Assembly (NCBI GenBank): GCA_030264375.1
Contig: JASCQW010000119.1
Coordinates: forward strand, 10,414,781-10,478,780
DNA length: 64,000 bases
Direction: 5' to 3'
DNA from: Carcharhinus longimanus
Lineage: Eukaryota
Shown here: piece by piece, positions 15,010 to 51,867 of the stretch
Layout: every line of letters begins with the position of its first letter
Numbering within the stretch: position 1 is the first letter of the stretch
Position numbers and translations under genes: made by a program
The notes under the pieces: generated by a model
Told to the model about the DNA's origin: nothing
Database searches by the model: none
What the model saw: only the letters and a program-made list of their open reading frames with translations

Positions 15010-15045
15010 ATCTTCTGGACACCAATAAAGTGTTGAAAGAAACAG
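15010..15045 (+). CDS. 36-nt coiled-coil micro-exon (DLLDTNKVLKET)
   Basis: ttttcctttatttcag|ATCTT...GAAACAG|gtctga; phase 1-1, open, same length as paralogous exons; weak donor. Confidence 0.65.
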
Positions 15046-16399
15046 GTCTGATGATACATATTGCCTTTTGAAACATCTACCCTACCAATTCACGACGTTT
15101 TCAGCGTTCTATGTTTACAGCTCGTAGAAAACTTAAACATCTTCTATATAGGAACTCAGGGTGTTAATTAGCGATCTTGACGAACAACTGTGATGAAGAA
15201 ACTGTAAGCACATTATTGTATTTACTGTTGAAAGGCTTAGCCTTCTCAATGCAATCATTCTGAATCAGAACGTATGATAACTCCAAACTTAAAGTTTGTT
15301 TATGGTTGAAAAAATGAATGGACACACTCCAGAGGCAAGTCTGGTCTGCTTTCCAATAAAAAGGCACGACGAAATAGGAAACTTTAGTTGTATGCATGTG
15401 TTTGATTGGATTGAAGCCCGATGCATAAAACATAACATATTGAACGTACGAATAAGCTTTTACGCAAATCCATCATTTTCTGCCGTCTGATAAATTCATG
15501 ACCAGTTTGATTTTTGCCTCAGTCTCAGTGATACGAATATCCCTTGATTCACGTATCTGTCAAAAATATATCGAAATTTGTCTTAAAATAGGCTAACACA
15601 TTTTATAAACAATAAATTGTGCAATGTCATTCAACAGAATGGTTCCGCTATGCGAGAAACATCATTAGTTTCTCTATATCTCATATGTGTTTTGCTTCTG
15701 CTGAGTAGTTGCCCGGTCCCAGTCTCTTCCAACAACGCAGAGGTTCTTGCTTCATCCACAAATCCGAGGCCCACGAGCTGCTTAGAATTTTCCAGTGCAT
15801 AATGACTTATTGTCGGGGAAACACTTTCTCGCAGCCCAACCTTGTCCTATCCATCTACCGGTGCAATGATCCCTTTGAAAACTTCTTGTAACGGAAGTTA
15901 CATTGCAAAAGCAAAGTACATAGTAAATGGAAGAGCCCTTAGAAATGTCAGCATACAAAAGGATTTACGGGTGCAAATCCAGAGCCGTAACGCTGGTTGA
16001 AGCGTTTCAAATAAAGGTCGAATTTATCTCCTCTCGAGTGAAACTATGTCCTGCCATAGCCTTGTTAGAAATGCTGCACGTAACACTCTCACCGTGGCTT
16101 GCAGACAGCTCCATGTAGCTCCTTATAATATTTATATGTTATTCTATGTCTCGTCTATGAATGGAATCTGTATTATACGCGTTGAGAACCACTGTGGCTG
16201 CCTGTCATGCTGTCTTCAATAATTTGTCGCCCGGTACCCCTCGATCCCTCTGTGATCATGTATTTCTAGCATTCTACCATTCACTAAGCTATCAATTGAA
16301 TTCTCATTGAACAATGTTCGGAGAACACATCCATTTGCCATTGCCCACATTACTGTTATCATCCTGCTATCTGAGGCTTTGTTCCTCTCTATTTATAAA

Positions 16400-16712
16400 A
16401 ATCGTGGAATCCCTACAGTGCAGAAAGAGGCCATTTCGCCAATCACCCCTGCACCAACAACAATCCCACACGGGCCCTATCCCTACAACCACAGGTATGT
16501 GCCCTGATAATCTGCAGACGTTAAGCGGCAATTTAACATGACCAGTCAACCTAACCTGCACATCTTTGGATTGTGGGGGTAATTGAAGCACCCGGACGAA
16601 ACCCACACAGGCACAGGGAGAACGTGCAAACTCCGCGCAGAGAGCGACCCAAGACTGGAATTGAACCTGTGTCTCGGCAGCTGCGAGGCAGCAATGCTAA
16701 AAACTGCCACCG
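16400..16712 (-). mobile_element. HE1-type SINE, near full length
   Basis: Reverse tail (gaatccctacagtgcagaaagaggccatt), core (ctttggattgtggg..gaaacccacac) and tRNA head (ggaattgaacc..gcagcaatgcta). Confidence 0.9.
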
Positions 16713-17014
16713 GGGAAAATTAGCACAATCCCAATGTTAATTTCATCTGCACACTGTCTGATCCTACCTAACATCTTCTCTTCCAGATTTTTTTGTCAAA
16801 TGCCTACAGCATGAGCCGCAGCAACTTTCACTGCAGAACACGATTGAACTCATGTTTTCAGTAATTAAAAAAAAAACTGGTTACCACCCTCTGCCACTAA
16901 GGCAATTTAGCAAATTGCACGGCTTCCATGTCCCAACACTAGTTTATTTCAGCGAAAGTCCGAATGCAGTCCATGTAGGCCAGATGAACAACATTGTGCT
17001 TATTTAAACAAATT

Positions 17015-17234
17015 CAGTATGCCAATGCCTCGAATCAGTTGGGTAATTGTAAATCCCGTGTTGCCTGTCATGTTACACTCCATGTCTACTTAGTTGACTC
17101 GGTATCAAATTATAGCTGTCTCTGCCTCAGGATGGAGTCAAAAAAAAAAGTCAGATAAGCAGATGTTGAACTTCGAGTCAGATTTGGCTATTGCACGGCG
17201 GGAAAATAAGTCAAAGCCTCAGAGCTGTGTAATG
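17015..17234 (+). repeat. Copy 1 of a ~220-bp diverged local duplication (copy 2 at ~18800-19020)
   Basis: tgccaatg.ctcga.tcagttg...cccgtgttgcctg...tatcaaattatagc.gtctct...gttgaacttcga.tca.attt...agcctcaga.ctg..taatg is shared by both copies. Confidence 0.9.
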
Positions 17235-17675
17235 NNNNNNNNNNNNGGGGGGGGGGGGGGGGGAGGCAACAACAACCTTTTTTTTACGTCGTCAATCCGA
17301 CATATTGGGCGTGATTTCGTATTGGCAGATCTCTGCAGAATACCGTTGAATGATCCTCACCTCTTCAATCCAGCTGCAGATTATTGCATTCATGATTAGT
17401 CCCTCAGCCTTCACTTTGGTTACAAGACCCATATTTTCTTCTATGCAGCTGCACCGACATTACTGGCAACGTGTCTACAAATCACTCCCAGAAATGTCAG
17501 ATTAAGATTATCATGTCATATTCCTATCAACAGCAACACAATCTTCACCATTGGAAGTATGGTTATGTACTTTATTTTTAATAATTTCTACGTACTTCAT
17601 GGACTCGTCTCATCGTCTTACTGTAATATCGTGTCATTCCAAATTGTCGCATAGTTTTGACATTTTGTGTCCAAC

Positions 17676-17900
17676 GGGTGGAGCGATGTCGCAGCCCTCA
17701 GCACGGCTACCTCACAGGGTGAGAGGCCCGGGCTTAAATCCGGCCTCGGGTGAGGTCTGTACGGTGTGCGCACGTTGTCCGTGTGTCTGCGTCTGTTTTC
17801 TCCAGGTTCTCCGGTTTCTACCTACAGTCCAAAAATGTGCGGGCTAGATTAATTGGTCATGCCAAATTGACCCTTAATTTCAGGGGATTTTGCAGGACTA
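17676..17900 (+). mobile_element. HE1-type SINE, decayed
   Basis: tRNA-like head (ccgggcttaaatccggcctcgggtga) and core (tgtgtctgcgt...ccggtttctacctacagtccaaaaatgtgcgg). Confidence 0.8.
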
Positions 17901-18799
17901 TTATGGCGCAGGGTATGGATGCGTTTGTTGCTGGTGACACCGTTTTCGTTTTCGTTTTGTGCTATAGAGTTTATATGTTGCACATCATATATGATCTGTG
18001 AAATCACTATGAGATCGTGTGTATGTGCTTCCATCTGAAGTTCACTTTTATTTATGTTCAAATGATTGCAGGTGAAATTCAGATGCAGATATCATTACTT
18101 TTGCAACTTTTTTTTTGCCACCTGCCCGCCAGGTCTATTCTTTGTTCATTTCAGCTGGTACAATAAGACTGCATGTGCCAAGTTATAATGACAAATACAC
18201 TTTTTGGTCCAACTATATATGGTTTTACCAAAATTGTCTTAAATTCATGACTCTTTCTCTAACTTGTCGCATCATTCCAAATACTAATATAAAAATGTAT
18301 TAATATCCGACTCATCAGAATACGTCCAAGGAGGGTCCATGTGAAGACCGTCCTGGTGGTGCATCTTATACCACATTTAATGTCCATAAATTGGAAATTA
18401 TTAACCACACCCATGAATTGAAATAGCCCCATCGTACTTAATCTTTATAGATTTGCATGAGATTTTAGAAGTCAACGCTGAACTGTTGCGCTTGAGGTGC
18501 AGCTTTTTTTCAATGAAGTTATTCATTTCATAGACTGTCAAAATAATTTGAACTTTCTAGCCTTACATGTATTATTTGATACATGCATTCACATGGTAAA
18601 TGTATCCTTCTGCGCCAATAGAAATTGTGCCCCCAGCCCAGAGCAATCATCCTCACCATTGTTATCCGGCAGTCCACAAGTCATTCTGGGCAATAGCTCG
18701 CCTATGTACCTCCCTAAATGTGCTCGATCAAAACGATCATTCCTCAGAATGGATTTTCATCAATGGTTACCCAATCAACGATCCCCAAGCATTCCCTTC

Positions 18800-19020
18800 A
18801 ATCTGCCAATGTCTCGATTCAGTTGAGCAATTGGAATTCCCGTGTTGCCTGCCATACTACACTCTGTGTCCACTTACTTGGCTCGCTATCAAATTATAGC
18901 CGTCTCTACCTAAGGATGGAACGGACAAAAATACCAAATAAGCGGGTGTTGAACTTCGAATCAAATTTACCAGCTGGATGGCGAGAACATAGTTCAAAAG
19001 CCTCAGAACTGCATAATGGG
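18800..19020 (+). repeat. Copy 2 of the ~220-bp local duplication
   Basis: Colinear similarity to 17015-17234. Confidence 0.9.
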
Positions 19021-19031
19021 CAGTCAAGATG

Positions 19032-19109
19032 CCATTCACCTGCTCCCAGTGTGGGAAAGGATTTACTTGTTCATCTCACCTGGTGAGACACCAGCGACTT
19101 CACAGGTGA
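19032..19109 (+). pseudogene. Isolated terminal C2H2 zinc finger plus stop codon (truncated ZNF gene copy)
   Basis: Translates [25 protein letters not shown], a perfect Kruppel-type finger. No further fingers upstream; followed by a UTR-like tract with AATAAA at ~19185. Confidence 0.8.
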
Positions 19110-19384
19110 CGGCAGAGAGTGGATTTTCTGTTACCACAAGCAACAACTATTCTTTACATCGTGAATCCAAATGATACCAATAGGAATAAATTATATTTCT
19201 CGACGATCGTTGATGAAAATATCTTGTAAAGCAGTATTCTGAATGCTTTAAAAATGTAATCGTACAAACCAAATTATTGTTGACAAATGACTTTAGAGTT
19301 TTGTACAGTTCATCTTTAAAAAAAATACTGTGAGGTAAATTGTGTACAGTTTATATTTATGCATTTTTGTCTTCTTTTGAGCAG

Positions 19385-19411
19385 AGGAGGAGCTGAGAAC
19401 AAAAGAAGATG
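19385..19411 (+). CDS. 27-nt coiled-coil micro-exon (EEELRTKED)
   Basis: ttttgtcttcttttgagcag|AGGAGGAGCTGAGAACAAAAGAAGATG|gtatct; phase 1-1. Confidence 0.75.
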
Positions 19412-22400
19412 GTATCTAATATCCAATAAGTTTTGAACGAGTGGATACAAAAAGAATACGTAGCTACTGCTTAGGGAATGTTCAGTTATTAAAACGTCAA
19501 TTGAGAACTCACTCAGAGACATCAGGAAGACAAATAGCCCAAGAATCTAAGTAATCTTCCGTGGAAGCTGTCTACTTTCCAAGCAGCAGAGTTATTATTG
19601 CGGCTTAAATCCATCGTTTCATCTATTTTGCCACCTATGAGCAAAACATCTCATGCCACATTTTTGGGAATTCCATTTTCTCCAGATACACTATCCAGTT
19701 ACCAACCAGATGAAACTGTGACTAATGTTATTAGTTTCTTCAAATGGCATTTCATTAGCTTTTCTAGTGTACGCTCAGAATCAGGAGACAAAATCATATC
19801 AGAGACAAATTATTAGATTGCTTCCAGTCAAACATTGTGAATGTTGACAACGGCAGCTGCTGATTGTGGACGAAATTAAAGGGTAGTGCTCGGCAAAGAT
19901 CATTGACCATGATTATTTAAAAGGGCACAAGTTATCCTGCACGCGTATCTATTTTTTATCTGACCACATTCAACGTATTGCGTGCAAGGGTCGTCGCCAC
20001 TTAATGATTACGTCACATAGAAAGTTTGCAGAACAGCTTCATGTGGAGAATATGTGATATCTGTGCATTTGAAGGTCCGGCAATGATTCACCATTTGGTT
20101 CAGCGGATTGAAGGATGACTGGGTAACTGTATTTACATCGATGATAAGGCCATACTAATCAACTGAGAAGTATCCACTGCAAACACAGATATTCTCCTTG
20201 GTACGCGACCTGAAAGTGAAATAGCAACACTCAGGCAGCTGAAGGAAAATTTTGACAATGGTCTGCAAGTATTCGGCAAACGTTGATTCAATTTATTACA
20301 TGTTTGCTGCAGATTCAATAATTCGTTGTTAGTTTTATCTCTCCAGAGTCGAATAGGAGGACCCTATTAAAGTCGGCGGAAGTGATAAATGTGGAATTCT
20401 TACAAGACGTTTTGAGTAAAAACGCAACAATAGGAATGAGTCATAGGGAATTTGCGTTCAATTACTGGAATTTTCTGAACAGCGCCAATCAAAAGAGCCG
20501 CGGTAACATCAACCCTTCTGGAAATTACATTGAATTTATGTATTGATATTATTCTGGCCTGCTGAGTCTTTTTTTCCGTCGCCACATCTTAATTTTGAAT
20601 GGGATAAATGATCTTCTGTCTTTTCCTTTTAACGTGATCCCGATTCTGTACAGCGGCTCCATTCATACGATGCTCCAATTACGAACATTCAAACTTTGAG
20701 AAACATGCTGCCGTGTCCTCATATACATAAGCTGTCCCTGGAAAACTTTTTATATCTGAAGCAAGTTCAGATATCGAATGCTCAGAGATCAAATGAAATA
20801 AAATCAGTTACTTACGAAGAGGTGCTATGGAGTTCGACTAGAATAAATTGCTGCACAAAGTCTCATCGGGTGAAAAACTTGAAAAAAGTGTCAAGGATCA
20901 AAGATGCGACTGCAAGGAACATTCAGACTATTGTTTAACATTGTGCACATAGTACTCAAATCGTGGGAAACCACGGTTAGCTCCCAAGCGGTGAAAATAA
21001 CTTCGAACGTGAGATGTTCAACGGGTCGAAGAATGCTTACGTTTGGAAGGAAGCCCTGTTTCGGCTCGGGAGGTGTGTGCTTAGCACGCTCTTCAGTATT
21101 TCAGGGAGGCATATATCTGATTTACCTGAAAAGCAACATTGAATCTATGCTCTGAACTGCACGCAATTTATTTTTTGTTTGTTTCATTAGTATTCAATTG
21201 GTGGCAATTCTGGTTAATCTTCAACAAAAACTATATATAGTAGCTTTATTGTGTTGGAAAACGTGTGCACGCATTAACTGTTTAACATCATGGCATGAAC
21301 TAATTTAAGCTGGAACTAAATATCCGCCTAAGAGTGAAACGTAGCAAGTGAGAAATATTGAAAGATGTAAAAAATGTATAATGAAGTATACGTATCTTTT
21401 TTTTTGGAAAGTAATATATTTTTGGGCTCCACCACGTGTATATATTGGGGAAAAAACACGTAATGTTGTAGGAATCACATGGCCATATGCGTTTTTATTA
21501 ACTCCTTCGATATTAATGTGTAAGGGTTCCACTTTGATGCATTAGACTGAGGAACCAATATTTGCTTTCGACATTATGAGGAATGATGCGACAAAATAGT
21601 CCTGATTTTTATTTGGGCAATTAGTGAAGAATAACTAGTGAAGTAAAATAAAATATGAGAAAGAAACAACAAGAAATACTGAGTAAACAATAACACATAA
21701 TGATATGAATGATTAAATTTCACGGTGCCTCTGAAATTATGTATCATTCAGAAAGTGTATCCACGTTTTTTGAACTCATAGAACAACATTTTGTTTCCAA
21801 ACAACATCGACATTTTTAAATCTATAAGTCAAATACATCACATTGCTCCCGCACGCTATTACTATAATGACGTGGCCTGGACTATATCTAAATATGGGTT
21901 GTTCAGCGAAGATGTGCAATTGTATTTCGAAAAGGAGGATATCAGCAATATGTATTAGCTCTGAAAGATGGCTGAACTGATTTCTCAGCAGATTTGACCT
22001 GTCTGGCACTTAATTAGTAATGGAAACCAGCCGCTCAGGCTGTCGGACGAGCTGCTCCACGTCGCTCTATATTTGCAGATAATTATTCCTTTTAGCCACT
22101 TCGATATTTCCGTTTCTGAATTACATCATTCGTTTCTCTGAAATTCCTCATATCAAACAATTATCATACTACTACCTTCACTGATCTGTCGGTTCTCTAG
22201 GGAATCTCTGTCTACGGTGGGGCAATTTGCACCATTTTTGTCTAGATTCCTGCTGACCTTGTTATTGAACAAATCGTATCCTTTCCTCATAATTGAATGT
22301 CGCCTGGTTTTATCACTACTTAAGTTTCCACTAGTTGGTCAAGATTATTTTTAAATTAATGATATTGTTTTTGCTAGGAAAGCAAGCAACATTACACAAA

Positions 22401-23706
22401 TTAAACCTTTTTGCGTTTAATTAACCAGCTCTTGAGAAATGCAAAGAGGCATTAAAAGAATTGGGTGAGAAAATATGTGTTTCTTTATTTATTTTCTTCC
22501 AACGTATTCAAATCATTGGGGAATTGTTTCAGATTGTGTTGTCAGATCTATTGTGACACTGAATTGTGCAGTAACGACAACACATCTTACATGAAATAAC
22601 TTAGTGAATGTTTTAATTAATCATATCATGTTCCCAAATAGAAAACCACAGTTCCAGCCAAAAAAACTTTCTGGAATTCCATATATAAATTCTCTCATGG
22701 TTAAACACAAACATATTCAAACAAATTGAAATTGCAGGAGGATTTTTGAGCCCGCGGTGTCAAAAATCAGGAGATGTTCAGCCTCATCACAGTTTCTCGC
22801 GCATGACCCATTCCCTTGGTGGCAAATGTATAATAAACAAATATTCAATTAGCATTAAATGTTTGGGGTTGTAATCATGTTGCATCTTACTTGAAGAGTT
22901 GGTGTCCAATTAGATAGCACACTCTCATTGAAACCGTGGCTCCTTTTTTTTTCTCTTCGTCAATTCATCTATTTAAATCCTGAAAACAAAACAGCTTTTA
23001 CGGATCCCTGGAGATTGAGTAACATGATGTCCGAACTTTTGTTTTCTAAACTTTCATATTTCTATCCATTTCAGCCATATATCTGATCGAGAAAAATAAA
23101 CAATTTCTATTCAATGTCTGCATTACACGAAAACCGACAAATTGGTGACGCCCTTCTCATCGCGCTTTAACCGGAGAAGCAATAGTCTATGACGTTTCTC
23201 TTAATGTCCCTATCTTGGAAAAGCAAACTTCTTCTATTTGTATGGTATATTATTATATCGATTCAAGGCATTTCATGAAGTTCATGCAGAAAAATACTGT
23301 TTGTTTGCTCTAAATGGGACAAACAATCGCATGTTTGCCGTATGTTCTCTTCGTCTCAACAACGGTTTACAACAAATTTATTTGCATTAATTTTCATCTG
23401 TCACAATTTATTTGTTTCTTCACAATTTATTTTGTCTTTCCTTATGTATTTCTTTCTTCCTTCCTTCACATTTTTTCTTTCCTTATTTCTTTCCTTATGT
23501 GTTTTCTTCTTTTTCTTTTTTTTCTGTCGTAAATATATCGACCGATGCTTACACCTTTAATGGTGCAATCTGTTTTTCCTTCATGAATGTGAATAAACAA
23601 TTTTAAAACTGATCAAAAAAATCATGCTACGTGAAGAAAAGCGCAGCACAGTCGAAATGTTTCGAGTTAGTTGACATCTGCGGGCTGATGTGTTCTTCCA
23701 CGACAG

Positions 23707-23733
23707 AAGGAAAATATAACGCAAAAGAGAAAG
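23707..23733 (+). CDS. 27-nt coiled-coil micro-exon (EGKYNAKEK)
   Basis: ttcttccacgacag|AAGGAAAATATAACGCAAAAGAGAAAG|gtgagc. Confidence 0.8.
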
Positions 23734-24576
23734 GTGAGCATTTGGTCACGAAGCCAAATATATTTTTCACAGCACAATAATATTGTAGAAAATCACTGTT
23801 TTGCAAAGTAAATTGAATACATTATCATGAACTTTCAGAAGACGTTGTTACTATCTGTTTTTAATTGCGTAGACGTGAAATGAATATGTTTCTTGCCGTA
23901 CAAAGATATGTTGCGTCTTCAAAACAATGACGATAAACTACGTAGTACTGATTCTAAAATTATATCCAGCTGATAGCATTTAAAAAGAGAGCGGACGGAA
24001 TGCGTATCTCGTTTACCAGTGGAGAATTATTTGCCGAACACACATTGCTTCAAGTGGATATATTGGTATATTGATGAAAGAGGAAAGCACCGAACGTACA
24101 TTTTTTTTTTAAGTTGCGCTGTATGTTATGGTGGAGGTGATATGTCTTGAATCTTATACTCGTGTGGAACATTAACCACAATTGTAGAATTTCAGTGAAA
24201 TGTTCGAAATGTGTTTCATAGTGTGCTCGGGTCAATCGACGGAATGTTGACATGAATCGATTGACTTCAAGTTAGATATTTTGCTTGCAATGAAAAACAG
24301 AATTGTGTTGGTGTGACAAGTAATTGGATTTAAATTAATTTAGATAGGTGAAAACTACATATTAACACCCCTTCAGAGTTTTCTTTTTTAGTTAGCAATT
24401 ATGGTATCACGTTTATCATTCAGATTTTTTTTTAACTTTCATGTGGTTTGTTGAATTGACATTTCACTATGTGCTGTGGATGGATACGAATTAAGGTAAT
24501 TCGAGCAATACCCTGACTCATCAATTTACGGTGCCATTACGTTGTACTATGAATTGTCTATGTTTTTGAATTTTAG

Positions 24577-24612
24577 AGCGAACCGACTACAAAGAATCTT
24601 TAGAAAATTTAG
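24577..24612 (+). CDS. 36-nt coiled-coil micro-exon (ERTDYKESLENL)
   Basis: tttttgaattttag|AGCGAACC...GAAAATTTAG|gtgagc. Confidence 0.82.
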
Positions 24613-25023
24613 GTGAGCAAAACGTTTGTCTTCCCAACATTTAGAACAAATGTATGCTATAGTCAACATATTTTGCAGATTTATGCGATTTTCATAACGC
24701 GGGTAATGGCAATGCTTACATTCCTTACAAATTGAAATGTCTTAAAGTATTTCCATGGACTTTTCTAAAAAAAACTTCATTCGAGTGGAAAGGAGCAAGA
24801 CCATCTTATTGGTTTGTTGCTGAATATACCTTCTGTAAACAACATGATCCTAGAATATTCATAATTGTGGTTATACCCCTCTTCTCCGAAGAATCATACA
24901 CTATTCATTACGTCCATTTCGATTTGAATGGCAACATGACCGTAGCAAAAAAAAAATCCTTCACACAAACGTTCAGTTAATGCCAGAATATGTTTTTTTT
25001 GTTTCTTAATCGATCCGCAACAG

Positions 25024-25050
25024 AAGTGAAACTAAACTCCACAGAAAAAG
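25024..25050 (+). CDS. 27-nt coiled-coil micro-exon (EVKLNSTEK)
   Basis: ccgcaacag|AAGTGAAACTAAACTCCACAGAAAAAG|gtagtt. Confidence 0.8.
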
Positions 25051-25624
25051 GTAGTTGTTAAAACGATGCGTTTAAAAGTAACACAGGTTTAACAGGTGGT
25101 CGCTTATGAATTTTACGTTAGTCTCAACGTCATATTTGTTAAAAAAAATCACAAAATGAAGTGGATACCGGGAGATTAAAGCATAACCAAAACAGGTCTG
25201 ACAACATCTCTAGAGAGATAGAAGGCGTTATTTCCATGAGATTTCAACATTATCGAAATTCGAGGATGAGTTTTTTTCTCTCTCTCTCTTTGCGCATGCT
25301 GCCCGACTTGTCGAATTGCCTGGCGTTTTATTCCTGCCATTGACGGGACTGGTTTCTTTAAGATGTTTGAGTGTGTATTAAACGTCAGCCTATTCGCTGT
25401 GGCCAAACAAGTTGAGACCGGTTGATTTCATCCCAATCGGCTATTTTTCTTTGCGTGTGAATTACGGTGTCATTGATGGTCAATTTAAAATTCAGGTGTT
25501 AACTTACGTTCAGATTGTACGTGTGTGTGGTTAATTTCCATCATGTTTCATCGCAGCGGTAAACTTGCTCTCCACGTCCTGTACTCCAATGTAATATTAT
25601 GTATTGCCCATTTTCTGCACTTAG

Positions 25625-25660
25625 AAAAAAACAACCTTAAGGGCGCACTGGAAGATTTAG
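25625..25660 (+). CDS. 36-nt coiled-coil micro-exon (EKNNLKGALEDL)
   Basis: ttttctgcacttag|AAAAAAAC...GAAGATTTAG|gtgagc. Confidence 0.82.
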   Translation, partial: KKTTLRAHWKI

Positions 25661-26057
25661 GTGAGCAAACAGCTTGTGTTGCCTATATTTTGGATTCAGA
25701 ATGTCTTGCATTTATGTTTTGCTATCAAATGCAAACTGGAGAATTGTCAAATGGACGCCAATTATGTGATAACAGATCATGAAGGTTTCAATTGACTTCA
25801 CAAAAAAAAGTTGCGTTCGGATGAAAGATGCTCAATCTAAAATATTTATAGGATCAAGAGAAACCAGAGTGAATGTGACGAGCGCTAAATAAGATGATTT
25901 CTGTAGAATCAAATTGTGAATTCCATTGAATTCCTCCCGAAAATAATGCAGCGTTCGTCATATCCGGGTCGGTTTGATGAATGAAAAGTATCAAAAATTG
26001 CCGTTGGCGACAATTTAAGATAATTGCACATTTTGTGTATGTTCTTTTTTGCGACAG

Positions 26058-26084
26058 AACGGAAACTAAAATTAACAGAAGAAG
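26058..26084 (+). CDS. 27-nt coiled-coil micro-exon (ERKLKLTEE)
   Basis: ttttttgcgacag|AACGGAAACTAAAATTAACAGAAGAAG|gtagac. Confidence 0.8.
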
Positions 26085-29000: not shown

Positions 29001-29399
29001 AATATACAACACAAATGCATAATACTAACTGCTAAGAACAATTGGTGACAGAAACATGACGCAAATGTATTTGTTTTAATGGCACAGTAATGTCACATAT
29101 TGGGTTACGTTGATAAACCATGGCCAAAGTAAACACACACACACACACATATTTTTGCAGAAGTGCAGACCAGAAATACATACATTAAATTGTAAAGGAA
29201 AAGAACAACAAAAAACACAACACCGGGACTTTGAGAACACAAAAAAAATGGACTGCAAAAATTAAACTCAAGCCAAATATTTTCCATCTAGAACTCAGCA
29301 GTAGTTACGAAATAGGGAAAACAAATGGATTAGAGTTAGGGCATGCAGGCTATTTTCTTTTCCTTCGACGTACAGAATAAGGACATACTATTTCATGCG

Positions 29400-38723: not shown

Positions 38724-38771
<48 letters not shown>

Positions 38772-38772
38772 A
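38724..38772. repeat. Compound (CT)n(CA)n microsatellite
   Basis: Direct reading; a poly-G tract precedes it at ~38654-38668. Confidence 0.95.
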
Positions 38773-38999
38773 CGCATTTGGCAGTTGGGTATAAAGACTT
38801 TCTGTGTTGTGACATGATGATTGAGTATGATGCTTCAGAAAATTCATTTGTAGAATAACACCTCAGATGAGTTCCACTGAGCTTCCTGGAGGTCCGTGTT
38901 GTGGACAGCAGGATTCAGCGTAGTGTGGGCAAGACGTTTCTTGAATTTCTCCACAAGCCCCATTGTCCTCAATTTTGGGGACTGTTTTCAGATACGATG

Positions 39000-41250: not shown

Positions 41251-41424
41251 ACTTAATTTATCTTTTTTTTTCCTTCATGTCGTACTTTTCACCGTTACGT
41301 GCTGATACACAGTTGGCCTGATGAATCTACAAACATACATTATTATAAGCTGCTACTATAAGCAGGACGTATGCTTCACGTATGTATATTATAAAATCTG
41401 CTTGAGCCTCACATTGGAATCTTT

Positions 41425-41735
41425 CGGGAACGGCACACTTGCTTTGTGGTTAGCACTTCTGGCTTAAACCGCCAGGCATCTGAATTCGATTCCCGATTTG
41501 GGTCACTGTTCGTCTGGAGTTTGCACTTGCTTTTCGTACCTGTGTGGGTACCCTCTGGATGCTACGGATTACCCCCACGGTCTGAAAGGCGGCTGATTAG
41601 ACACATTGAGCATGCTAAGTTCTCCGTCGATGTATCTGAGTGGGCGCGGGAATATAGCAAATGGAAGATTTTCAAAGTAGTTTCATTGCAGACGTAATGT
41701 CAGCCGACTTGTTATGTTAAGAAATAAATAAACTC
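41425..41735 (+). mobile_element. tRNA-derived SINE
   Basis: gtggttagcact..ttcgattcccgatttgggtcactg..ggagtttgcac head and core, aataaataaact tail. Confidence 0.8.
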
Positions 41736-42210
41736 ATTAGTTCAATTAATGAAGCCCATTTTCTAACACCGTATAGTGTCGGTGTAAATGGGCTCGCTGG
41801 TAAACAGTGCTTTCTGATGATAATACATAGAACGTCCAGTCAGTAAAAAAAAAGTAGCTGTTTATTTTCTCCGTCACCATTTGAAACACCAGCTTACTAT
41901 GTGACCGCCAAACCTTGTGCTCTTTAGATCAATGTGAGATTTTGTAAGATGTATCACGAAATAACAGTTAAAATAAATTAAAATTGTTCGGGGGGAATTT
42001 ACGGCCTCGGTGCATCCCAGGCCAGGAATTGCGGCCCAAGCTCAACGAACCTTCCCATTGCCCACCCCTTGCCCACTGCGCTTCCCATGGCGAGGTATGG
42101 GGTGGCGGGGGCCGCGGGGGAGGGGAGGAGTGTTCGTGCTGCATAATTCTGGCGAATGTGCAATCAACATTTCATATTGTAACTTAGGTTGAGACTTTAC
42201 TCCTTTGCAG

Positions 42211-42246
42211 AGCTGGCCAGTTGCCAGAAAGCACTTTTTGAACTAG
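42211..42246 (+). CDS. 36-nt coiled-coil micro-exon (ELASCQKALFEL)
   Basis: tttactcctttgcag|AGCTGGCC...TTTGAACTAG|gtgagt; consensus splice sites. Confidence 0.85.
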   Translation, partial: SWPVARKHFLN

Positions 42247-42901
42247 GTGAGTAATCGCCCACTTACAAGCTATAACATTTGCTGGCGATAAAGGCTTTTC
42301 GGAAATTAAGTGAATTTGAACTATATAATTAGACAGTTTGTCATATGCAAATCATTTGAACATTTGATCAATGCGAAAACGAAAATTGGGAGTTGAAATG
42401 TCCAAACAATGTATCCTTGCTGATATCTACATGCCCATGTTGGTACTACTGCCNNNNNNNNNNGCGTTCCGATTTGCAGGTAAGGTGGAATGGTGATACT
42501 AACCTTGAATAGGCTTCGCCCTCTGCATCTTCTCAGTTTGGCTTAAAACGTTTGAAAAATGCACGTTGAATATCCTCGAAGTGTTGCCAACATTTATCAT
42601 GCAATGATGCAAACATATTGTCGCTGTCTGATTGTTGCTTGAGAGCTTGCTTCACAACAATAGGGCACAATATTACGTAAAATAATGATTAGACTTTAAA
42701 TATCTTGAATGTTAGACATTGTGTGGTTGCATTTTACAATGAGAGGTGCCATCGAATTCAATGACCCATGAAAAATAATAATCATATTTTCTATTTGAAC
42801 AAAATCAATTATTTCATATTTTCTGTTTGAAAACAGCTTGCAAAACGTAATTGTTTCATGTATTTGTCACCTATCATTCTATTTTTCTCTCTCTCCGGTA
42901 G

Positions 42902-42928
42902 AACAAAAGCTAAAGTCCAAAGAGAAAG
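42902..42928 (+). CDS. 27-nt coiled-coil micro-exon (EQKLKSKEK)
   Basis: tttttctctctctccggtag|AACAAAAGCTAAAGTCCAAAGAGAAAG|gtattc. Confidence 0.82.
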
Positions 42929-43029
42929 GTATTCTCATGAACAGGTTATTACTTTTCAAGATGTGTGACCAATTTCATCATTCCATCGTATCCACAACAA
43001 GCCCGAGAAAGATTTTACATATGCAATTA

Positions 43030-45620
43030 TCAATATTTTGAGTTTAATCCACACTGCTGTTAAGAAGATATTCCAGGATATCGGCCCAGCAATAGGTCAG
43101 CAGCAAAACTGAACTTCTATATCCGAATATCAGAATGAGTTGCAGTGGACTACACAAATGTAGGTGTTCCCCGATATCTGTTGTCTTTTCGATCCAGATG
43201 GTCGTGGTAGTGATTGGAAGATTATGCCAAAACAACTTTGGGATATCCTGTAGTGCCTTTGTATAGATTGCATACGGCTGCCTTTTGATATGTGCGAGAG
43301 AGTGATATTTGTGTAAGTTGTATCATTCAAGCAGGTTGTTTCGTACTGGATGATTTTTTTTTCTTGCCTAATTTATACACGACTTATTTTTGAAAATTCC
43401 GCCACTTACCGACGGATTTCGACCCCCACTTTTAAAATCACATTTCTCGACTGCAGATAGGGTTTGGGTAATCAGCTGGTGAATTAACTGTGGTAGTTTA
43501 CCCAGCCTTTGCCCCGGTCTGAAAGCCAACCACTGTGTATGCTTAGTAAAGTTCAATACCTGGTCAAAAGTTATACCCAATATTGTGGTAGCGTAAAATC
43601 CAGCGGAGGAAATGTCAAAACATGTCAAAAGTGTACATTAAGTCAACTCTGGTTGTAGATGTTCATTGACTGGACAAAACTGGGGCGCGAATTGAGCTTG
43701 CCACTACTCAGCTCAATCTGGATATTCTCCATGACATTGGCTGCAGCTGGAGGTGGACTGTTTCAGTATCTAGATAATCACATATGATATTGAACATTGT
43801 ACGTTCATCAGAGAACATCACATACGGACATTTTGATTGAAGTAACGTTATCGATGAGGGATTTGATGATTATTGCGTCCCTGACTATAACCTGGAGCAG
43901 ATTTGATGCTCGCCGATCACGAAAACTATTTACCTTCATGCCAGATATGAGTCCTTGAGATAGGAATGATCCCCCCGCCCCCCCAATTCCCCCTTCCCCA
44001 CCCCTCCGCCCCTCCGTCCCGCCACTCTCCAGTTCGAATTCAGTGCTTGTTTTCTGGGGTTCATGACATGAAGACTGGATCAAATGCTGCCCGAATATCA
44101 TGGCATAACATTCGCGCTTCACCTTCAGTATTCAGCTTGTTTGTACATGTTTAACCAAAGGCTTGAATGGTGTTGGTACTGGGCGGCGGTAGACAAAACC
44201 AAACTCAGCGTCACAGAGCAGGTTATTACTAATTAAACTTCCGTCATAGCCCTGCTGTTAGCCGTTCGCATCAATTTATTGACGGTCGCCAGTAGACGGA
44301 TGGTTCAGTAATTCAGAGGCGTGAATTGTGTCCTGTCTCGTGTGTGTAGGGCAAGCCTGTGCGAGTTTCCACCTTTCCGGATTGATGCCAATATCGTAGC
44401 TGTCCTAAAACAACTTGGATTGGGCCGCCTACAATTATTCAGTACTGTTGCTGGGACATCATCAAAACCTTTAATGGTTTACGTATCTCTTGTTTTTTGG
44501 ACGTTTTGTTTTGCAGTCACATAGAATAAATCAAAAATGTCTGAAAAATAGCATTTGTGATTCCGCGGACGAACAGAGGAGGCCAAGATAAATTATGCAC
44601 TCTGAATTTTCTTGCTGAAAAATTCTCCGGATGCATCAGCCTGAACTTTTTACATGAAATGTTGAACACCTCCACTAAGGAACACACGCAAATTTGTAGA
44701 AATTGCTCCTCAATAGTTGTTTCTGTATCTAACACCATTGATAGCTAGCTGCGGGAGGACTGCAAAGCTTAGACCTGTTCCATTGTTTGTGATATTGCTC
44801 AGATGGGTATCGTAATTACTGCTTAGCTTTTATCGCTATTTCTTGCAGTTTCACTTGGTTAACGCATCGTTTTCACTTTTCTCGTGTTGTTCTTGACATT
44901 CCCTTGATTATTTCTTTTTAATATTTAGATTGGCAAAGTCAACTACACCAGCCACTTTTAGGTAGGATGAGGTCACAACCTTTTTGTTTTCTGTCTAATT
45001 GTTTCCCCATCCAGTTTGTGCAGTTGCAGTTCAGTTTTAAGAGCTGGAGATCTCGGAATATGCTGGGAATGCCGAGCCACTCATGTTCATGTATAATAAA
45101 GTTTGTGCCCCGTCCCCCTTCCTCCCCCGCCTCGCGTATATTCCGTACTGATGCCACCTTCAGTCCTTCCCCCACGTGCTGTTCAAAATGGAAGAGAGCT
45201 GATTTACCAGAGGAAATTGGGTGCTAAGTGATAATAAGCAGAAGGTTATTTTGAGCGTTTTTGACCAATTGTCATGCAAGTTCCTGGAATCCAGAGTCGA
45301 TGTCCAGGACTCCAGGTGCTCGTCCAGCCCACTGCAGACCACTGTGCAATCATGTCCGCTGGTTAGGTCCTCTCCTTCGTGGGGCAGGGCATAATAAATA
45401 ATGACAATTGTGACGTTTGTGTAATTACATGTGAAGTGCGATTTACTGAGCATTTCTATGTGAAGCTGCCCGTTTACCAGAACGTCACATGGTTCTCCGA
45501 ATTTTGTCACAAAACTCAAATGTCATTAGGGCGAAATATTTACGGCAGAGCTGAATATGCGGTTGCCAACTGCTATCCTTCCTCTGAACATATTTAGGGG
45601 CAACATTATCAGATAACATA
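43030..45620 (-). mobile_element. Decayed CR1-group LINE (endonuclease to 3' region)
   Basis: Minus remnants: NFIIHEHEWLG (cf. GDFN.HH.EWL), CDLILP (cf. LDLILT), TILGITFDQVLNFTKH. Confidence 0.65.
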
Positions 45621-45639
45621 TAACTTTCTTTTCAAGTGT

Positions 45640-46545
45640 CTTTGCCTTTTCGTCAGCACTAAATAAAGAAAAAACGCGTTAGATACTTAATATACCAGGA
45701 GAGATATACAGTTAGCGATCTATGCGACCTGGGAGAATTGCACCAAAGTTCCAACAAACTGAAAGAACAAGGCAAAAATGATTGGTATTTCTGAGGGTTA
45801 TTTCACAGAAACATAAAATGCGTGGGGTTGTAAAAAAAAGTTAAGTCGTGCATCACAGTTCAAAATTTCACTTGTTGAGTTCCGAGGGCTGAAAATGGCG
45901 AACTGAACCATGAGCTAATGCTCCTTTATTTTGCATTTGGGTTCATTGAGGCAGTGCTGCAGGCCAAATATGACAACAAAGAGTTGGCTTGAAACCGCAA
46001 GCGACGATATAGTTGGGCTCATGCTTTCTAGCTGAGTAACGCTTGTCAACAAAACATACATGTAATCTCTGGTAACTCTAATTAGTACACAGCATTAAAA
46101 AAAAATGCTGGGTGCAGCGAATACAGTTGCCGAATTCCAGAAGATACACCTGAAACGCGACTTAACCAGAAAATTGTTTGTGCTGCTTCTCATGGCGAGG
46201 ATGGAAGATTTAAAAGGGATCAATGTTTCACATTACATGCTTGATAGGTACATTATCCTGATATAGCGATAATGAACTGGGTCGCATGGAAGACTGCATC
46301 TATATTTCAGGACAATATGAATTGAAACCTTCTCAGAATTCATGCCCATCTTATATTCGGTGATATCGAACTGTTTGATATGACAGCAAAGTTAAAAACA
46401 TTGCATTCAAAATCGCTAATGCTGTAAGAGGGGATCGAGTGATCGAAGAGGATTGTGGCCATCCGAGTTGAAGATGACAGGTATAACACTAGGGTTAAAG
46501 CAGGGAGCAATTCAGAACTTAAACCTAAATACATCTTATAACCAT
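45640..46545 (-). mobile_element. Penelope-like element remnant (RT C-terminus/GIY-YIG region)
   Basis: Minus LTLVLYLSSSTRMATILFDH resembles the Penelope motif PLVLTYHP..IQ.II.RH. The 3' part resembles the C.....R...E.HLIF.LGT..P.G.N tail. Confidence 0.5.
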
Positions 46546-47719
46546 TGACAAATATGATTAGGTGCTGGAGGCCCTGGTTTTAACTTTTTCACGGCTGTCA
46601 GTGAACAATGATGAAATAATAGTCAGTCGCCCATTAATTGTTTTACATTAGCTGTGAAAGTAAATCTTACTTTTGCTATTAGTATTTGTGAAGATTTTGT
46701 CAGTCCCTGAAACTGCAAGAGAGGAACTAAGGATTAAAATGTAGTGTAGCAGCATTGGCTCGTATCTAAGATACAAAGGGGGAAATCAATTAGATTTCCT
46801 GTAAAAGTTCGTGGAGATTCAAGTGGAGCGTGAACTTTAGAACTGTCTCGGTCAAATAAATGCAAATTTATGGCTTGAAATGTGACGCAATCCACTGCAA
46901 TTCAGAGGCAGCATGAGTAGCTTGATTCAGAATATTCCTAATTCTTTTTATGTTCATTCCATCCATTAAAGAAATATAGAATGAATCCAATTCGTGGTAC
47001 CTATGACAGAGTCAAACAAGACTAAACTGACAACATGAGTCATTGTACCCATTTCTGACGTGATCTGAGAGACATGGTCCAATCTAACAAGATAATGCAC
47101 CAAACCTCATGTCGGGCTTGACCTGACGCTTTACCTTAAATAAAAGACCGGGAGGGCTTTGAAAAATTGCATCAGACGAGCCATCCGTTAAAGGCCATTG
47201 ATGGTTGACTCTGCTCTAGCTAAGGAAATCAAGCTGCCTGGATTTTCATGAAATCAATGAGGCTAAGGGTCGGTCAACAACTGCCTTGTCATTTAGAAAC
47301 ATGATTATTGTAATACGAGAGTCAAGTAATGTATATCAATTCAACTGAATACACTTCCAGTATTTCAGATTCCTGCCCTTGATGGACCAGAGTTTTGACA
47401 ATTTGACTTGCAGTTCTGATTTTCTTAAATGATGCATTGTGTTGCTCCAATCTTCCATATGCCTAATATGGCTATCATTTTACACGTCGAAACTTTGAAG
47501 AAATATATATGATTTTGTTTTGAATGTGATGACCTTCAGATCAGTTGCAGTGAGTAAGGCAGAAATGGCACCACGAATGTTCTCAACTTTTCACTATGAT
47601 TGCTTAAAATATATTTCTGTTGTTGGCGGGAACGTAGGCCAGATTCTCTGTTTAATCTGTTGCATCTTGCCAGTGCCATGTAACAACTATCTCTAAATGG
47701 TATATATCTACTTTAGGAA

Positions 47720-48364
47720 GACATCCGGATTTCATCCAGGGATGATAATCCCTAAACATCTCATTTTATGTCTGACATTGTGACCCCCTGCATCACCACC
47801 CCAAGATAGATCTGTTAAGATCTAAATTGGTCATCACCGAAGCTCAACGGTGTTAGATGATAGTTTTTTTTTCCTTCTTATGGGACAGCAAAGGCAGCAA
47901 AGGAGCTGATCAATATAGCATCAGCTCTCGAGAAAACAGCTAATGATACTGCGGAAGAATTAGAGGATGTACGCCGCTCTATCTTCGAAGTTTCAGCTGA
48001 AGTCGTAGATATACGGACGGTGGCACTCCAAAATCGAATGACTTTATGTTACTTGTTGGCAGCAACAGGAGTTGCTTGTGCCGTAATATGCTCTGAGTGT
48101 TGCACATACATTCCAGACTCCTCGGATAATATCACTGATTTAGCTGAGCATATTAAAAAGGCGGCTGCGAAAATTAGGGCTGAAGGGCAACACTTTAATA
48201 ACTACAATCCTCCTGGCTGGTGGCCTTTTGGTAACCTCTTTGGAGACTGGAGAGGGGTGCTCATGCACATGGGAGCCATTATCCTGGTAGTTTACTTACT
48301 GCTAGGCTTGCCTAAGGGTGCGTGCCAACGTCTAGCATATCATAGAGCACAAGGTCCCTCCTAA
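47720..48364 (+). mobile_element. env: Endogenous retrovirus env, transmembrane subunit remnant (gamma-type env)
   Basis: PSYGTAKAAKELINIASALEKTANDTA...VALQNRMTLCYLLAATGVACAVICSECCTYIPDSS...WWPF...AIILVVYLLL: fusion region, ISD, CX6CC and TM helix. Confidence 0.92.
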
Positions 48365-48402
48365 AGAGGTTAATGTTATCATGGAATGATAAAAGGAGGG
48401 AA

Positions 48403-49139
48403 TGAGATATAAGGGGTTAGCATCCCATTAATCTCCTGTGATCTTGGCCATTTGTGAAAAAGAAAGTTTTGCGAGCTGAAATCTTGCAAAATTGCAAATG
48501 CAGCTGGTTGCTTTAAAATAAAGAGAAAAGTCTCCATTAGCTAAAAGCTGTGATTAACTGCATCTTGCTTGAAACAATCTGCGCTGATAGTCCCGATTCT
48601 GAATTGTCAGCCTGGCCTTGTAAATAACGAAATATTACGAAACTTTTGCTTTATTAACTCAGTCTAGGCTGGACTTGGCTAAATGATGTCCTTAGTTTGA
48701 AGGAGATAATATTTTATGGCAAAGTAACGTCGCAAGATATATATGAGAACGGTTTCTATCTCACACTGGAGCAATGGTGGACGTGCAGCTTCGACGACAA
48801 CCGGGGGTGGATTTTCGACATATTTTTACTCACATACTGTATTTGTACTTACTTTTGCAGCGAATCTGGGTGAAGTTATACTGTGTTGCGTGACTAATTG
48901 TTGTGAGAAGAGAACAAAGGAGGTAAACCCTCCACCCCCCCACCCCGCCGTTCGAGGGAGAATCGCTCGGCTAAACTCAGAAAACAGTGTTGAGTTAGTA
49001 TACTCAGTAAAGCGTTAGAAAAGCGATTCTCCAAGAGAGCTTGTACTTGCTTGAGAATAACGGACCGGGTTTCCTGATGCAGATCAGTGTCTTGTTCTTG
49101 CATCAAGTACATAAGGGTCTCTGAAAAACGAACCTGACA
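48403..49139 (+). mobile_element. ERV 3' LTR
   Basis: Polypurine tract AAAAGGAGGGAA (48391-48402) directly before TG, TATA-like box at ~48737, AGTAAA at ~49006, probable end ...CCTGACA. Confidence 0.75.
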
Positions 49140-49465
49140 ATCCGAAGGGAAGACCGCATTATATAAATTCCAAATTTGCTACACAAGACCTGATTTATTT
49201 TTGGGGGAGCCAAATGAGCACCTGCATATTATGGAATAACTGAGGGTTCTCAGTTTATTTAACTGTGCATGAAATGTGCCGCATATCAATAATGAGCACA
49301 GTGTGCGATTTGATAATCAAGTATAAAATTACTGTTAATCATTTCATGAATTCACTGATACTGCACTAGTTTGTCACCAAGAGCATAGCCAAAGACAAAA
49401 GGATTACGAGAGACAAACGATTATATGAAGGGTAGCGATGCGTTCGATAGCAGGACAGACATTCC

Positions 49466-50743
49466 GGGGCGATTCTCCGAAAAGTGCTGAATTGGCGAGA
49501 AAACTGGTCTAGATCACGATGTTTTATCAGTGCAACTTCCAACCCAATTCTCCCCAATCTCGGCAATGCAGCAATCACAATCGTGGATATCTTTTTAAAA
49601 AAGGGGGCTATTATCGCCAGAGCCGAAAGCTCTCAAACTCTGCGCATGCGCAGTGATATGGCAGTCTCCCCGTTTCCTGGTCTGCTCGATCACTGGCCAA
49701 TCCGCGACCCCCGCAGTCCTGCCCCTCCAGCCCCACCACACCACATCCCCTATGTTCAGATCGCGCCCTCCGCAACAATTTCAGGGTCAGCCCGGTTCTC
49801 CCCAACCCCGGGGCCGCCAACGCACCCAGCAGTGGCGATTCACCACCCTCCTCACCCCGGGAGATCTGCCTCCTCCCCTGCCCTTCCCCCCACCTCCCCC
49901 CCAGACGGGGAACCACTCCTCGGAGGCAGACCCCCGACAGGCGCAGATTCTCCGGGAGACAGATACCCCCAGCAGACCACCTAACCGTTCCAGCCCGCCC
50001 CGATAGTTGACCAGACAGAGAGACCCAATGCAGGAAGCGGAACTCACCAATCGCCCCCTACCTCCCGAGTACAGTAGGCTCCGCTCCCCTCGGCACTGCC
50101 GTTTCCCGATGAACAATGTCAAGGTGTCCCGTGGGCATGAGCACTTTGCCAGTTGGACAGTGCCTGGGGGCACAGGCTGGCAATGTCAATGTGAGACGTC
50201 TCACAACACCAGGATAAAGTCCAACTGGTTTATTTGGCAGCATAAGCTTCACTGCCACATACAACTGTTGGGATAGAACATACTGTTGTGACTCTTCTTA
50301 CTGTGCTTACCCCAGTCTAACACCGTCAGTGTGCCCATACTGCCCGATCCCAAAGGGAGGCCCGATTGTCCCCCCCTCCTCCCCACGACTTCCGTTTTTA
50401 CTCCGCTGGTGTGTCCCGCAAATTCCCTCAATGTGGATAGCTACTCTAAACCCTGACAGAGTGAAAGACTTCTGAGGTGCGATCGAGCCCCGCACGTTCC
50501 GTGCAGAGACGGTAATTACATTTAAATCAATAAAAACAATTCAAAACGCTTTCTTCTCTCCCCGACGGTTCCTAGCGCGGCCTAGACTGCGACTGCTCTC
50601 TGATTACGAAAGATCTGCATGCGTCTGGAATGCACGCACAAATCCCTCGAAATGACCGGTACGCGCATCTCCCGACCCGTCAGAAAATGTGTGGGCCAGG
50701 ATATGAGCATTGCCCCCTACATTGCTGACAAAGAATCGTGCCA
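49466..50743. mobile_element. GC-rich non-autonomous DNA transposon (Harbinger-like) with short TIRs
   Basis: Starts ggggcgattctc and ends agaatcgtgcc (imperfect inverted repeat). The interior is GC/CpG-rich with low-complexity Pro-rich ORFs. Confidence 0.55.
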
Positions 50744-51840
50744 AATATGTTTAAGTGCAACCTAGTTTCTGAGTACTGAAAACTGATGAGTGATTAAATA
50801 CAATGTTACGGTTTTTAGATATTGAAAGTTTCAGCACTCAATATATTTGCACATTGGCGGGGGCAGCGGCGGTTGGAGGGNNNNNNNNNNNNNNNNNNNN
50901 NNNNNNNNNNNNNNNNNNNNNNNNNNNNNNNNNNNNNNNNNNNNNNNNNNNNNNNNNNNNNNNNNNNNNNNNNNNNNNNNCATAATAAAGGGTTTTCAGT
51001 ACGTCATTTGCGACCTGAAATTGCCTTTGGGATTTGGTTTTGAACTTGGCTCATTCACCTCCACGTTTATATCACTAAACATTCATTTATTCATTAAGAT
51101 GCATTGTTCCTGTAACATGAAAACTATTGAGCTTTTCCACTAAATCTTGGAGAAATCAACCTCGAGAAAACTGTTGTTGGTGAAGTACAATATCGATATC
51201 TTGCTTCCGAATTGGAAAATCTCTCGTCCATTGTTTTTGGCTGCATTTAAACTCAACACATCTGGTGTCAACTGATACAATCACACGAAAACTCAACTCT
51301 GTACTGCTTGTTTAGTGGTGCCATGCTGTACGTGAGAAACTTCAATGGAATATTAAGCTGACATAGCCAGTTACAGTAGGGTAGAATTGCAGCATATTTG
51401 CCATTTCAATATTTGCGAAAATATGTCAAATGATGACAGCACTCAGGAATGACCAGGAGTGTTATAAACAGAGAAAAAAAAGTAACTTTTTTTTTCTTGT
51501 TATTATTTGCCTCAATATGACTTGTGAATAATATCATTCAAACAAGACATTTTTCGCATATCTACTTTCGCTTCCAGGGAATGATGTTTGGAAATTTGTT
51601 GTTACCAACAAAACATGTGTGATTGAAACTCAAGGTCAAAACAAGGACTGGGTATTTCCTCAGGAATTATGGTGCACAACTGAAACTCCTACACTCAGTT
51701 GTTTTAGATGTCACAGTTAAGCAGACTACATACAAGGAACATTAAAGTTGTGTCATCAGTATTTGCAACAAACTTTCAGTACTACATTGAAATTGTTAGC
51801 ATAAGTATATTGTTGTGTGTTTCTTTTTGCTTTTCTTTAG

Positions 51841-51867
51841 ACCCCGCCCAGAAGGCGAAAGAATCAG
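51841..51867 (+). CDS. Candidate 27-nt micro-exon (DPAQKAKES)
   Basis: ttctttttgcttttctttag|ACCCCGCCCAGAAGGCGAAAGAATCAG|gttcgc; excellent acceptor, weak donor, phase 1-1. Confidence 0.6.

Follow-up and report, generated by a model that had tools for sequence, protein, structure and literature searches.

The principle of heptad-encoding micro-exons ahead of a B30.2 exon is already known from butyrophilins and BG genes. In the enterophilins of the guinea pig, a long heptad region is joined to a B30.2 domain without immunoglobulin (Ig) domains, and a link to sorting-nexin-1 and EGFR has been reported for these proteins. Butyrophilins (BTN/BTNL) encode heptads in very short exons, after which comes a B30.2 exon (PMC6790196, PMC4046983); they are present in cartilaginous fish, where some are described as being in linkage with the major histocompatibility complex (MHC) (PMC12841164). 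The chicken BG genes build a long coiled-coil tail from tandem micro-exons of variable number (13-36 exons of 21 or 24 nucleotides (nt)), and this tail, as the zipper protein, is reported to act alone on actin-myosin (PMC4046983, PMC8813856). Here we analyse a 64,000-nt stretch of DNA (the window) from the cartilaginous fish Carcharhinus longimanus (G000:C119:10,414,781-10,478,780; C119 is a contig of the assembly), in which an earlier, sequence-only reading had seen hidden coding micro-exons for a modular coiled coil, a proposal that our results support. We found that the window is the middle slice of an array of about 1 Mb, with at least 185 exons of 27 or 36 bases in the same phase and a single B30.2 exon at its end. 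This array probably forms one gene for a very long coiled-coil rod with a ligand-binding B30.2 tip, a reading to which we give a probability of roughly 0.55.

All 11 segments of the sequence-only reading lie where it had placed them, with AG and GT as bounds; each is 27 or 36 nt long, has G as its final base and is stop-free in phase 1. De novo scans brought the number of rod exons in the window to 14 (Table 1), and once the three added exons are counted, 11 of the 13 neighbouring pairs alternate in length, in line with the mostly alternating order proposed before. An untrained splice-site score, which compared lengths from 15 to 69 nt with neither a stop filter nor a composition filter, singled out the same two lengths on the plus strand of the window (27 nt, n=5; 36 nt, n=5; other lengths, mean 0.2 and maximum 2), with n=0 and n=1, respectively, on the minus strand.

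The array is much larger than the ~37 kb first claimed, which underestimated its scale about 25-fold. We surveyed 1.46 Mb of C119, comprising the window, 800 kb upstream and 600 kb downstream, with coordinates counted from window position 1. Over a 997-kb span the untrained score returned 35 segments of 27 nt and 54 of 36 nt (other-length mean 3.6), in contrast to three and two on the minus strand; 21 nt was likewise in excess (n=16). Among the unfiltered 27- and 36-nt segments of this span, stops occurred in 4 of 89 in phase 1, but in 64 in phase 0 and in 38 in phase 2, and phase-1 stops occurred in 30 of the 84 unfiltered segments of other lengths divisible by three. Between -729.7 kb and +660 kb, a matrix trained on stop-free seed exons called 236 exons on the plus strand, 127 with 27 nt and 109 with 36 nt; of these 236, 51 belong to the next array downstream. 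On the minus strand of the 1.46 Mb it called six, three of them in a neighbouring inverted array. Lengths in this catalogue alternate at 169 of 235 steps (10,000 shuffles: mean 117, maximum 146). The median intron is 4.9-6.3 kb between neighbours of the same length versus 2.2-2.4 kb otherwise, suggesting that exons were overlooked there. Four 36-nt look-alikes, at -195,648, 61,179, 71,666 and 309,420, were set aside because of a common motif that we take to be LINE (long interspersed nuclear element) reverse transcriptase; the first was dropped before the matrix was retrained. A pattern search with the 21-nt exons returned two of the array's own exons and one on a small contig.

The array leads to an intact, phase-matched B30.2 exon 7 kb past the last micro-exon, so that the downstream B30.2 exon for which the sequence-only reading had suggested looking does exist. 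The 185 called exons upstream of it amount to 1,926 codons. Pfam identifies SPRY in this exon (E 4e-17), and by tblastn it is the sole B30.2 exon in the 1.46 Mb. Its domain lacks cysteine, contains a strongly basic loop and shares 37-45% identity with the closest paralogs. A SPRY search of the genome gave 141 matches, and 150 of 182 candidates were scored. Six SPRY exons lie on C119, at 6.33 (-), 8.53 (+), 9.02 (+), 9.09 (-), 10.68 (+) and 11.29 (+) Mb, and all six are downstream of array-type exons on the same strand. Among the scored candidates, the five paralogs on C119 reached 124-167 bits and one on contig C81, at 94.27 Mb, reached 110 bits, while the rest stayed below 90. One gene is thus supported by an excess that is specific to length, strand and phase, and by the repetition of the same layout at the six SPRY exons of C119.

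The paralog on C81 could be set against a catshark protein, XP_038672306. Its five consecutive exons of 33, 24, 27, 27 and 48 nt correspond to residues 218-270 of that protein, gapless and without overlap, and a sixth exon (27 nt) corresponds to residues 278-286, directly ahead of the B30.2 domain; no called exon of the C81 paralog accounts for residues 271-277. Of all the evidence, this match speaks most strongly for phase-1 splicing of such exons and for their conservation between species.

Other relatives were found by a full HMMER search with the B30.2 domain, word-indexed homolog searches having failed to recover the family. Among the 8 of 150 listed matches that we looked up, chondrichthyan RefSeq relatives are Leucoraja 'TRIM69-like', Scyliorhinus 'TRIM39-like' (two genes), Narcine 'A33-like' and Callorhinchus 'TRIM58'. 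In addition, Callorhinchus milii XP_042192744.1 ('nuclear-pore anchor-like', 1,697 aa) joins a rod and the family B30.2 in one model. When profiles of the 12- and 9-residue modules were used to tile them, all four relatives so analysed exceeded each of 60 shuffles, whereas two control B30.2 proteins failed to; XP_042192744.1 scored 354 versus 96±21 in its shuffles. In the six relatives scanned with Pfam, SPRY/PRY alone rose above noise, with no Ig, RING or B-box. Two quick, unrooted trees of the B30.2 domain placed the family on one side of a long branch, with 14 of 43 rows in the first (Shimodaira-Hasegawa-like approximate likelihood ratio test (SH-aLRT) 100) and 13 of 40 in the second (SH-aLRT 99), where nine butyrophilin-type rows fell outside. 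Because chimaera members are present, the family probably arose before the chimaera-elasmobranch split, as far as unrooted trees allow. XP_042192744.1 and the short Leucoraja, Scyliorhinus and Narcine models share this B30.2 branch and the same modules, and are family members. The array itself has a branch-specific B30.2 preceded by 27/36-nt phase-1 modules, which places it in this unnamed chondrichthyan family. The expectation that annotation would miss such a gene holds in part: the RefSeq entries are automatic models, truncated or with names taken from unrelated proteins, but RefSeq does cover the relatives, one of them with 1,697 aa.

Table 1. Features of the array. Positions are counted from position 1 of the window.
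Feature	Position	Strand	Remarks
Whole window	1..64000	+	inside the array, which continues past both ends
Array	-729,734 to +259,154 (G000:C119 about 9.685-10.674 Mb)	+	185 called exons: 98 x 27 nt, 87 x 36 nt; 98.7 kb N
Candidate first coding exon	-720,066 to -719,922	+	unproven; ATG; signal- or anchor-like
Block of eight 21-nt exons	-617,848 to -587,779	+	
36-nt phase-1 rod exon	596..631	+	added by de novo scan; outside the earlier finding
27-nt phase-1 rod exon	1038..1064	+	added; outside the earlier finding; tandem duplicate of an exon 14 kb upstream
36-nt rod exon	15010..15045	+	
27-nt rod exon	19385..19411	+	
36-nt rod exon	22429..22464	+	added; within the earlier interval yet overlooked; restores alternation
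27-nt rod exon	23707..23733	+	
36-nt rod exon	24577..24612	+	
27-nt rod exon	25024..25050	+	
36-nt rod exon	25625..25660	+	
27-nt rod exon	26058..26084	+	
36-nt rod exon	31139..31174	+	
36-nt rod exon	42211..42246	+	
27-nt rod exon	42902..42928	+	
27-nt exon	51841..51867	+	weakest of the 14 (matrix score 20); 28 kb without a called exon thereafter
Last 27-nt exon	+259,128 to +259,154	+	
Terminal B30.2 (PRY-SPRY) exon	+266,298 to +266,818 (L061:2298-2818; C119 10.68 Mb)	+	phase-1 acceptor, 172 open codons, stop

A pair of 36- and 27-nt exons amounts to three heptads, so that the helical register is kept, whereas a lone exon shifts it. In 40 close pairs, positions 2, 5, 9, 12 and 16 of the unit are hydrophobic in 75-95%, as the sequence-only reading had them; its sixth position, 19, is hydrophobic in only 7% and is mostly lysine. 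N-glycosylation sequons (3 versus 8 expected) were judged uninformative. Since every exon is in phase 1 at both ends and has a length that is a multiple of three, duplication, loss or skipping of any one of them leaves the reading frame intact. Self-comparison revealed tandem duplications 4-40 kb in size; most of them show 64-80% identity, and for a few the value is near 90%. The rod has been enlarged by tandem duplication of such segments, and some copies have since decayed. Our results thus support growth by duplication, and they likewise support the cartilaginous-fish setting supposed earlier. Within duplicated segments identity is 0.85 in exons versus 0.77 in flanks, with exon above flank in 12 of 15 pairs, and the ratio of non-synonymous to synonymous substitution (dN/dS) is about 0.55 across 15 duplicated exon pairs, the pairs in both counts not being independent. 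A genomic read run, possibly derived from the source sample, covered 14.9-32 kb of the window at a flat depth near 9 outside repeats; this stretch is therefore not an assembly duplication. The run contained no exon joints over that stretch.

Two further duplicates were noted in the window. A 24-nt candidate exon with a strong donor (4500-4523, +) has a duplicate near -10.6 kb whose acceptor lies 6 nt further upstream; as that duplicate measures 30 nt, the acceptor of the window copy seems to have shifted. At about 2175 (+) lies a decayed duplicate of the 36-nt exon at -12,084, with the acceptor retained, the body rearranged and the donor gone. The window also contains an intronic open stretch of 166 codons (47864-48364, +), which we take to resemble the transmembrane (TM) subunit of a retroviral envelope.

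The sequence-only reading had further raised the possibility of an immune receptor, with IgV/IgC and TM exons to be sought upstream and a B30.2 or C-type lectin exon downstream. Our motif scan for SPRY, Ig and lectin exons overlooked the real B30.2 exon, and the Ig and lectin negatives therefore rest on probe searches; about 10% of the array span is N. Probes from eight Pfam-verified BTN-type proteins, one of them from a chimaera, gave no Ig match in the 1.46 Mb save an overrun into the B30.2 exon, and the best hit of an Ig hidden Markov model (HMM) in the same stretch had an E of 0.57. With 47 RING/B-box probes, the HMM search of the C119 locus gave no match and tblastn only weak ones (E 1e-4, with a stop and in the next gene; E 0.03, inside the span). 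Neither the BTN-type probes nor the 47 RING-bearing ones found a credible exon in 200 kb of C81 that cover most of the gap between two family members. Lectins fared no better: none of the 37 Lectin_C matches is on C119, and six lectin probes gave nothing under E 0.5 in the region. IgV, IgC, RING, B-box and lectin exons were thus all looked for without success, and for a TM exon there is one weak candidate, so that the receptor reading lacks support. The TRIM-type, E3-ligase names of the relatives are likewise unsupported, as the six relatives have no RING or B-box and the locus has no credible one. A seemingly convincing TM exon at -752 kb proved to be a dispersed repeat (146 genome matches, most with stops; the homolog search was empty), and a tetherin reading built on it was dropped, as PLVAP sits on contig C150 and the array ends in B30.2.

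A receptor of the butyrophilin or BG type might nevertheless have its signal, IgV, IgC and TM exons concealed in assembly gaps ahead of the 21-nt block. The eight heptad exons of that block come after two gaps, of 6.5 kb and 2.5 kb, as well as a weak, hydrophobic 108-nt phase-1 TM candidate at -638,134, the best solved match of the terminal B30.2 is BTN3A1 (81 bits; TRIM21, 74 bits), and the C81 member is MHC-linked. However, the 108-nt candidate has no paralog and has rod exons upstream of it too, Ig matches are absent from the C81 stretch between the two members as well as from the 1.46 Mb of C119, none of the six relatives' models has an Ig domain, and the B30.2 branch leaves out all nine butyrophilin-type rows. 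We therefore regard such a receptor as very unlikely.

The candidate first coding exon at -720 kb is signal-like, as is the start of the skate model XP_055510696, and core cysteines occur in 26 of 78 36-mers. These features would suit a secreted protein with a cleaved signal peptide, a disulfide-linked extracellular rod and a B30.2 domain outside the cell. Two of the six relatives' models start with a short hydrophobic stretch; in the chimaera model, though, a basic cluster after the hydrophobic start favours, by the usual rule, an anchor that faces the cytosol. In addition, the B30.2 domain of butyrophilins is described as cytosolic (PMC6790196), and the candidate exon occurs at background frequency. 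We consider secretion improbable. A genome search for paralogs of the candidate exon, with its 5' half, returned itself alone, and comparison of five presumed 5' intervals gave repeat-derived matches only.

Several observations weigh against a single gene with an intact rod. Splicing of the array's own exons is deduced from the relatives' models, and five of six of these are short (230-460 aa). The donor motif of the -720 kb candidate is at background, with 4 occurrences in the span on the plus strand and 7 on the minus strand, a good 36-nt rod exon lies 10 kb upstream of it, and the hydrophobic starts of the relatives' models could be intron read-through. The span contains 162 N gaps, 70 of exactly 100 N, which leaves continuity of one gene over 1 Mb unproven, and the 32 of 182 SPRY candidates left unscored could conceal more SPRY exons beyond the surveyed 1.46 Mb. 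There are stretches of 28, 42 and 96 kb with no called 27/36-nt exon, the last of which contains the 21-nt block, and just past the window the exon type switches from cysteine-bearing to cysteine-free 36-mers, a possible gene boundary. Stops occur in 2 of the 236 called exons, and in 9 of 24 duplicate comparisons the partner is uncalled, several times through lost splice sites or stops.

Part of this evidence would fit a tandem row of at least two genes, only the last with a B30.2 exon. The window would then be the 3' part of a rod-only gene, whose coiled-coil product, soluble or anchored, would resemble the BG-derived zipper protein. Consistent with this, 36-mers with a cysteine at position 5 are almost confined to -450 kb to +50 kb, with none after, the 28 kb past 51,867 have no called exon, and the 21-nt block sits within the 96-kb break. 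On the other hand, no first or last exon was found in those stretches, all exons share one phase and one strand, and XP_042192744.1 joins cysteine-bearing and cysteine-free modules to a single B30.2. We hold a row of genes to be rather unlikely.

Decay could also have gone further, such that only a short 3' part is expressed and most upstream exons, those of the window included, are recently abandoned copies. Decayed duplicates do exist, one of them at about 2,175 in the window, most of the relatives' models are shorter than 500 aa, and the dN/dS of 0.55 indicates weak constraint. Yet the duplications are old, as judged from introns that are mostly 64-80% identical, splice sites persist, and phase-1 stops are rare among both called exons and unfiltered segments (2 of 236 and 4 of 89). 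Recent abandonment thus appears highly improbable.

If the array is one gene, a single transcript would join the rod exons to the terminal B30.2 exon, and an unbroken rod of its ~2,000 residues would, at the usual rise per residue, measure close to 290 nm. Such a rod might serve as a dimeric cytoplasmic spacer, probably anchored in the membrane by a short hydrophobic N-terminus, that would hold B30.2 domains at a tunable distance; a two-copy fold prediction of the skate protein, with a score of 0.01, was uninformative. Skipping of exons may contribute to the tuning. In the database models, annotated isoforms of catshark, Narcine and Callorhinchus differ by single 9-residue blocks, and a 6-residue block differs in one species. 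As a working analogy, the protein would resemble the heptad tail and B30.2 of butyrophilins combined with the long tail of chicken BG, but without the Ig ectodomain. More broadly, and at somewhat less than even odds, we propose an ancient, unnamed B30.2 family of cartilaginous fish that predates the chimaera-shark split, with genes of up to a megabase and at least 200 micro-exons. Its products would be molecular rulers of up to ~300 nm that place a binding domain inside the cell, their length and register set exon by exon through duplication and splicing.

The surroundings hold further members. A neighbouring one, at G000:C119 9.09-9.66 Mb (-), is inverted, so that it and the window's array lie head to head. 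In the trees its B30.2 forms a pair with that of a catshark protein (SH-aLRT 99-100), and no first exon was found for it. Downstream, the next array contains, from +408.9 to +425.5 kb (G000:C119 10.82-10.84 Mb, +), mostly 24-nt phase-1 exons with glycine and proline, which may be a non-helical hinge; a similar low-complexity repeat, of 9 residues, occurs in the chimaera protein. None of the MHC class I matches is on C119. On C81 lie 12 of the 22 (84.5-88.9 Mb), along with a GABA-B receptor 1 exon (91.17 Mb) and SPRY exons by the dozen; its family members at 92-94.3 Mb are therefore MHC-linked. A second MHC-linked array of ~35 exons, at G000:C81 94.06-94.21 Mb (-), starts 55 kb past the B30.2 exon of its neighbour. 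The interval between the two yielded no Ig or TM exon, and no SPRY match is listed on C81 between 92.0 and 94.2 Mb. Near the MHC, G000:C81 90.30-90.35 Mb (-) has five tandem single-exon C-type lectin domains, several with a linker-like exon of 105-117 nt nearby, and a lone lectin exon at G000:C81 91.18 Mb (-), 14 kb from the GABA-B receptor 1 exon, is presumably CD209/CLEC4-like. No micro-exon array lies alongside either the cluster or the lone exon.

By the criteria tested, the array is not a butyrophilin, BG, TRIM, lectin receptor or tetherin gene. It shares with butyrophilins the short heptad exons and the B30.2 exon that follows, but differs in that no IgV, IgC or established TM exon was found, in having about 190 exons versus a few, and in its own B30.2 branch. 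The pocket histidine with which BTN3A1 binds phosphoantigen aligns to a serine. Like chicken BG, the array encodes a long tail from tandem heptad micro-exons of variable number. BG, however, has a single IgV and a TM segment and no B30.2, while the array has a B30.2 and no IgV was found; the BG unit is one heptad per exon, whereas that of the array is 36+27 nt, or three heptads in two exons, with at least five times more exons spread over ~1 Mb. TRIM-B30.2 proteins (TRIM39-, TRIM58-, TRIM69- and A33-like names) also have a coiled coil and then PRY-SPRY, and RefSeq labels the relatives accordingly, but the N-terminal RING and B-box of TRIMs have no counterpart in the six relatives scanned and no credible one in the locus. 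The C-terminal C-type lectin exons of CD23/CD209-type receptors were not found in the array. Enterophilins, set beside the array by description, are far shorter than its rod and serve as an analogy only. Synteny with PLVAP is described as a criterion for tetherin (PMC10617486); in contrast to the tetherin/TMCC(aT)/PLVAP group, with its TM-coiled coil-glycosylphosphatidylinositol (GPI) topology, the array lies on another contig than PLVAP and ends in B30.2. The family is undescribed in the literature searched, a search that left subscription journals, most authors' manuscripts and supplements outside. The same literature likewise contains no description of the scale, of the 36+27 three-heptad unit, of the separate B30.2 branch or of the apparent absence of Ig, RING and B-box. 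If the array is one gene, a large, old, multi-gene B30.2 family has been truncated and misnamed by annotation. It would be a test case, provided by nature, for the way in which symmetric micro-exons enable a coiled coil to vary in length and register, and would bear on the origin of the BG tail and of the butyrophilin heptad exons. Should the family of rulers be real, its genes would be among the most exon-rich of vertebrates and would form a third branch beside butyrophilins and TRIMs.

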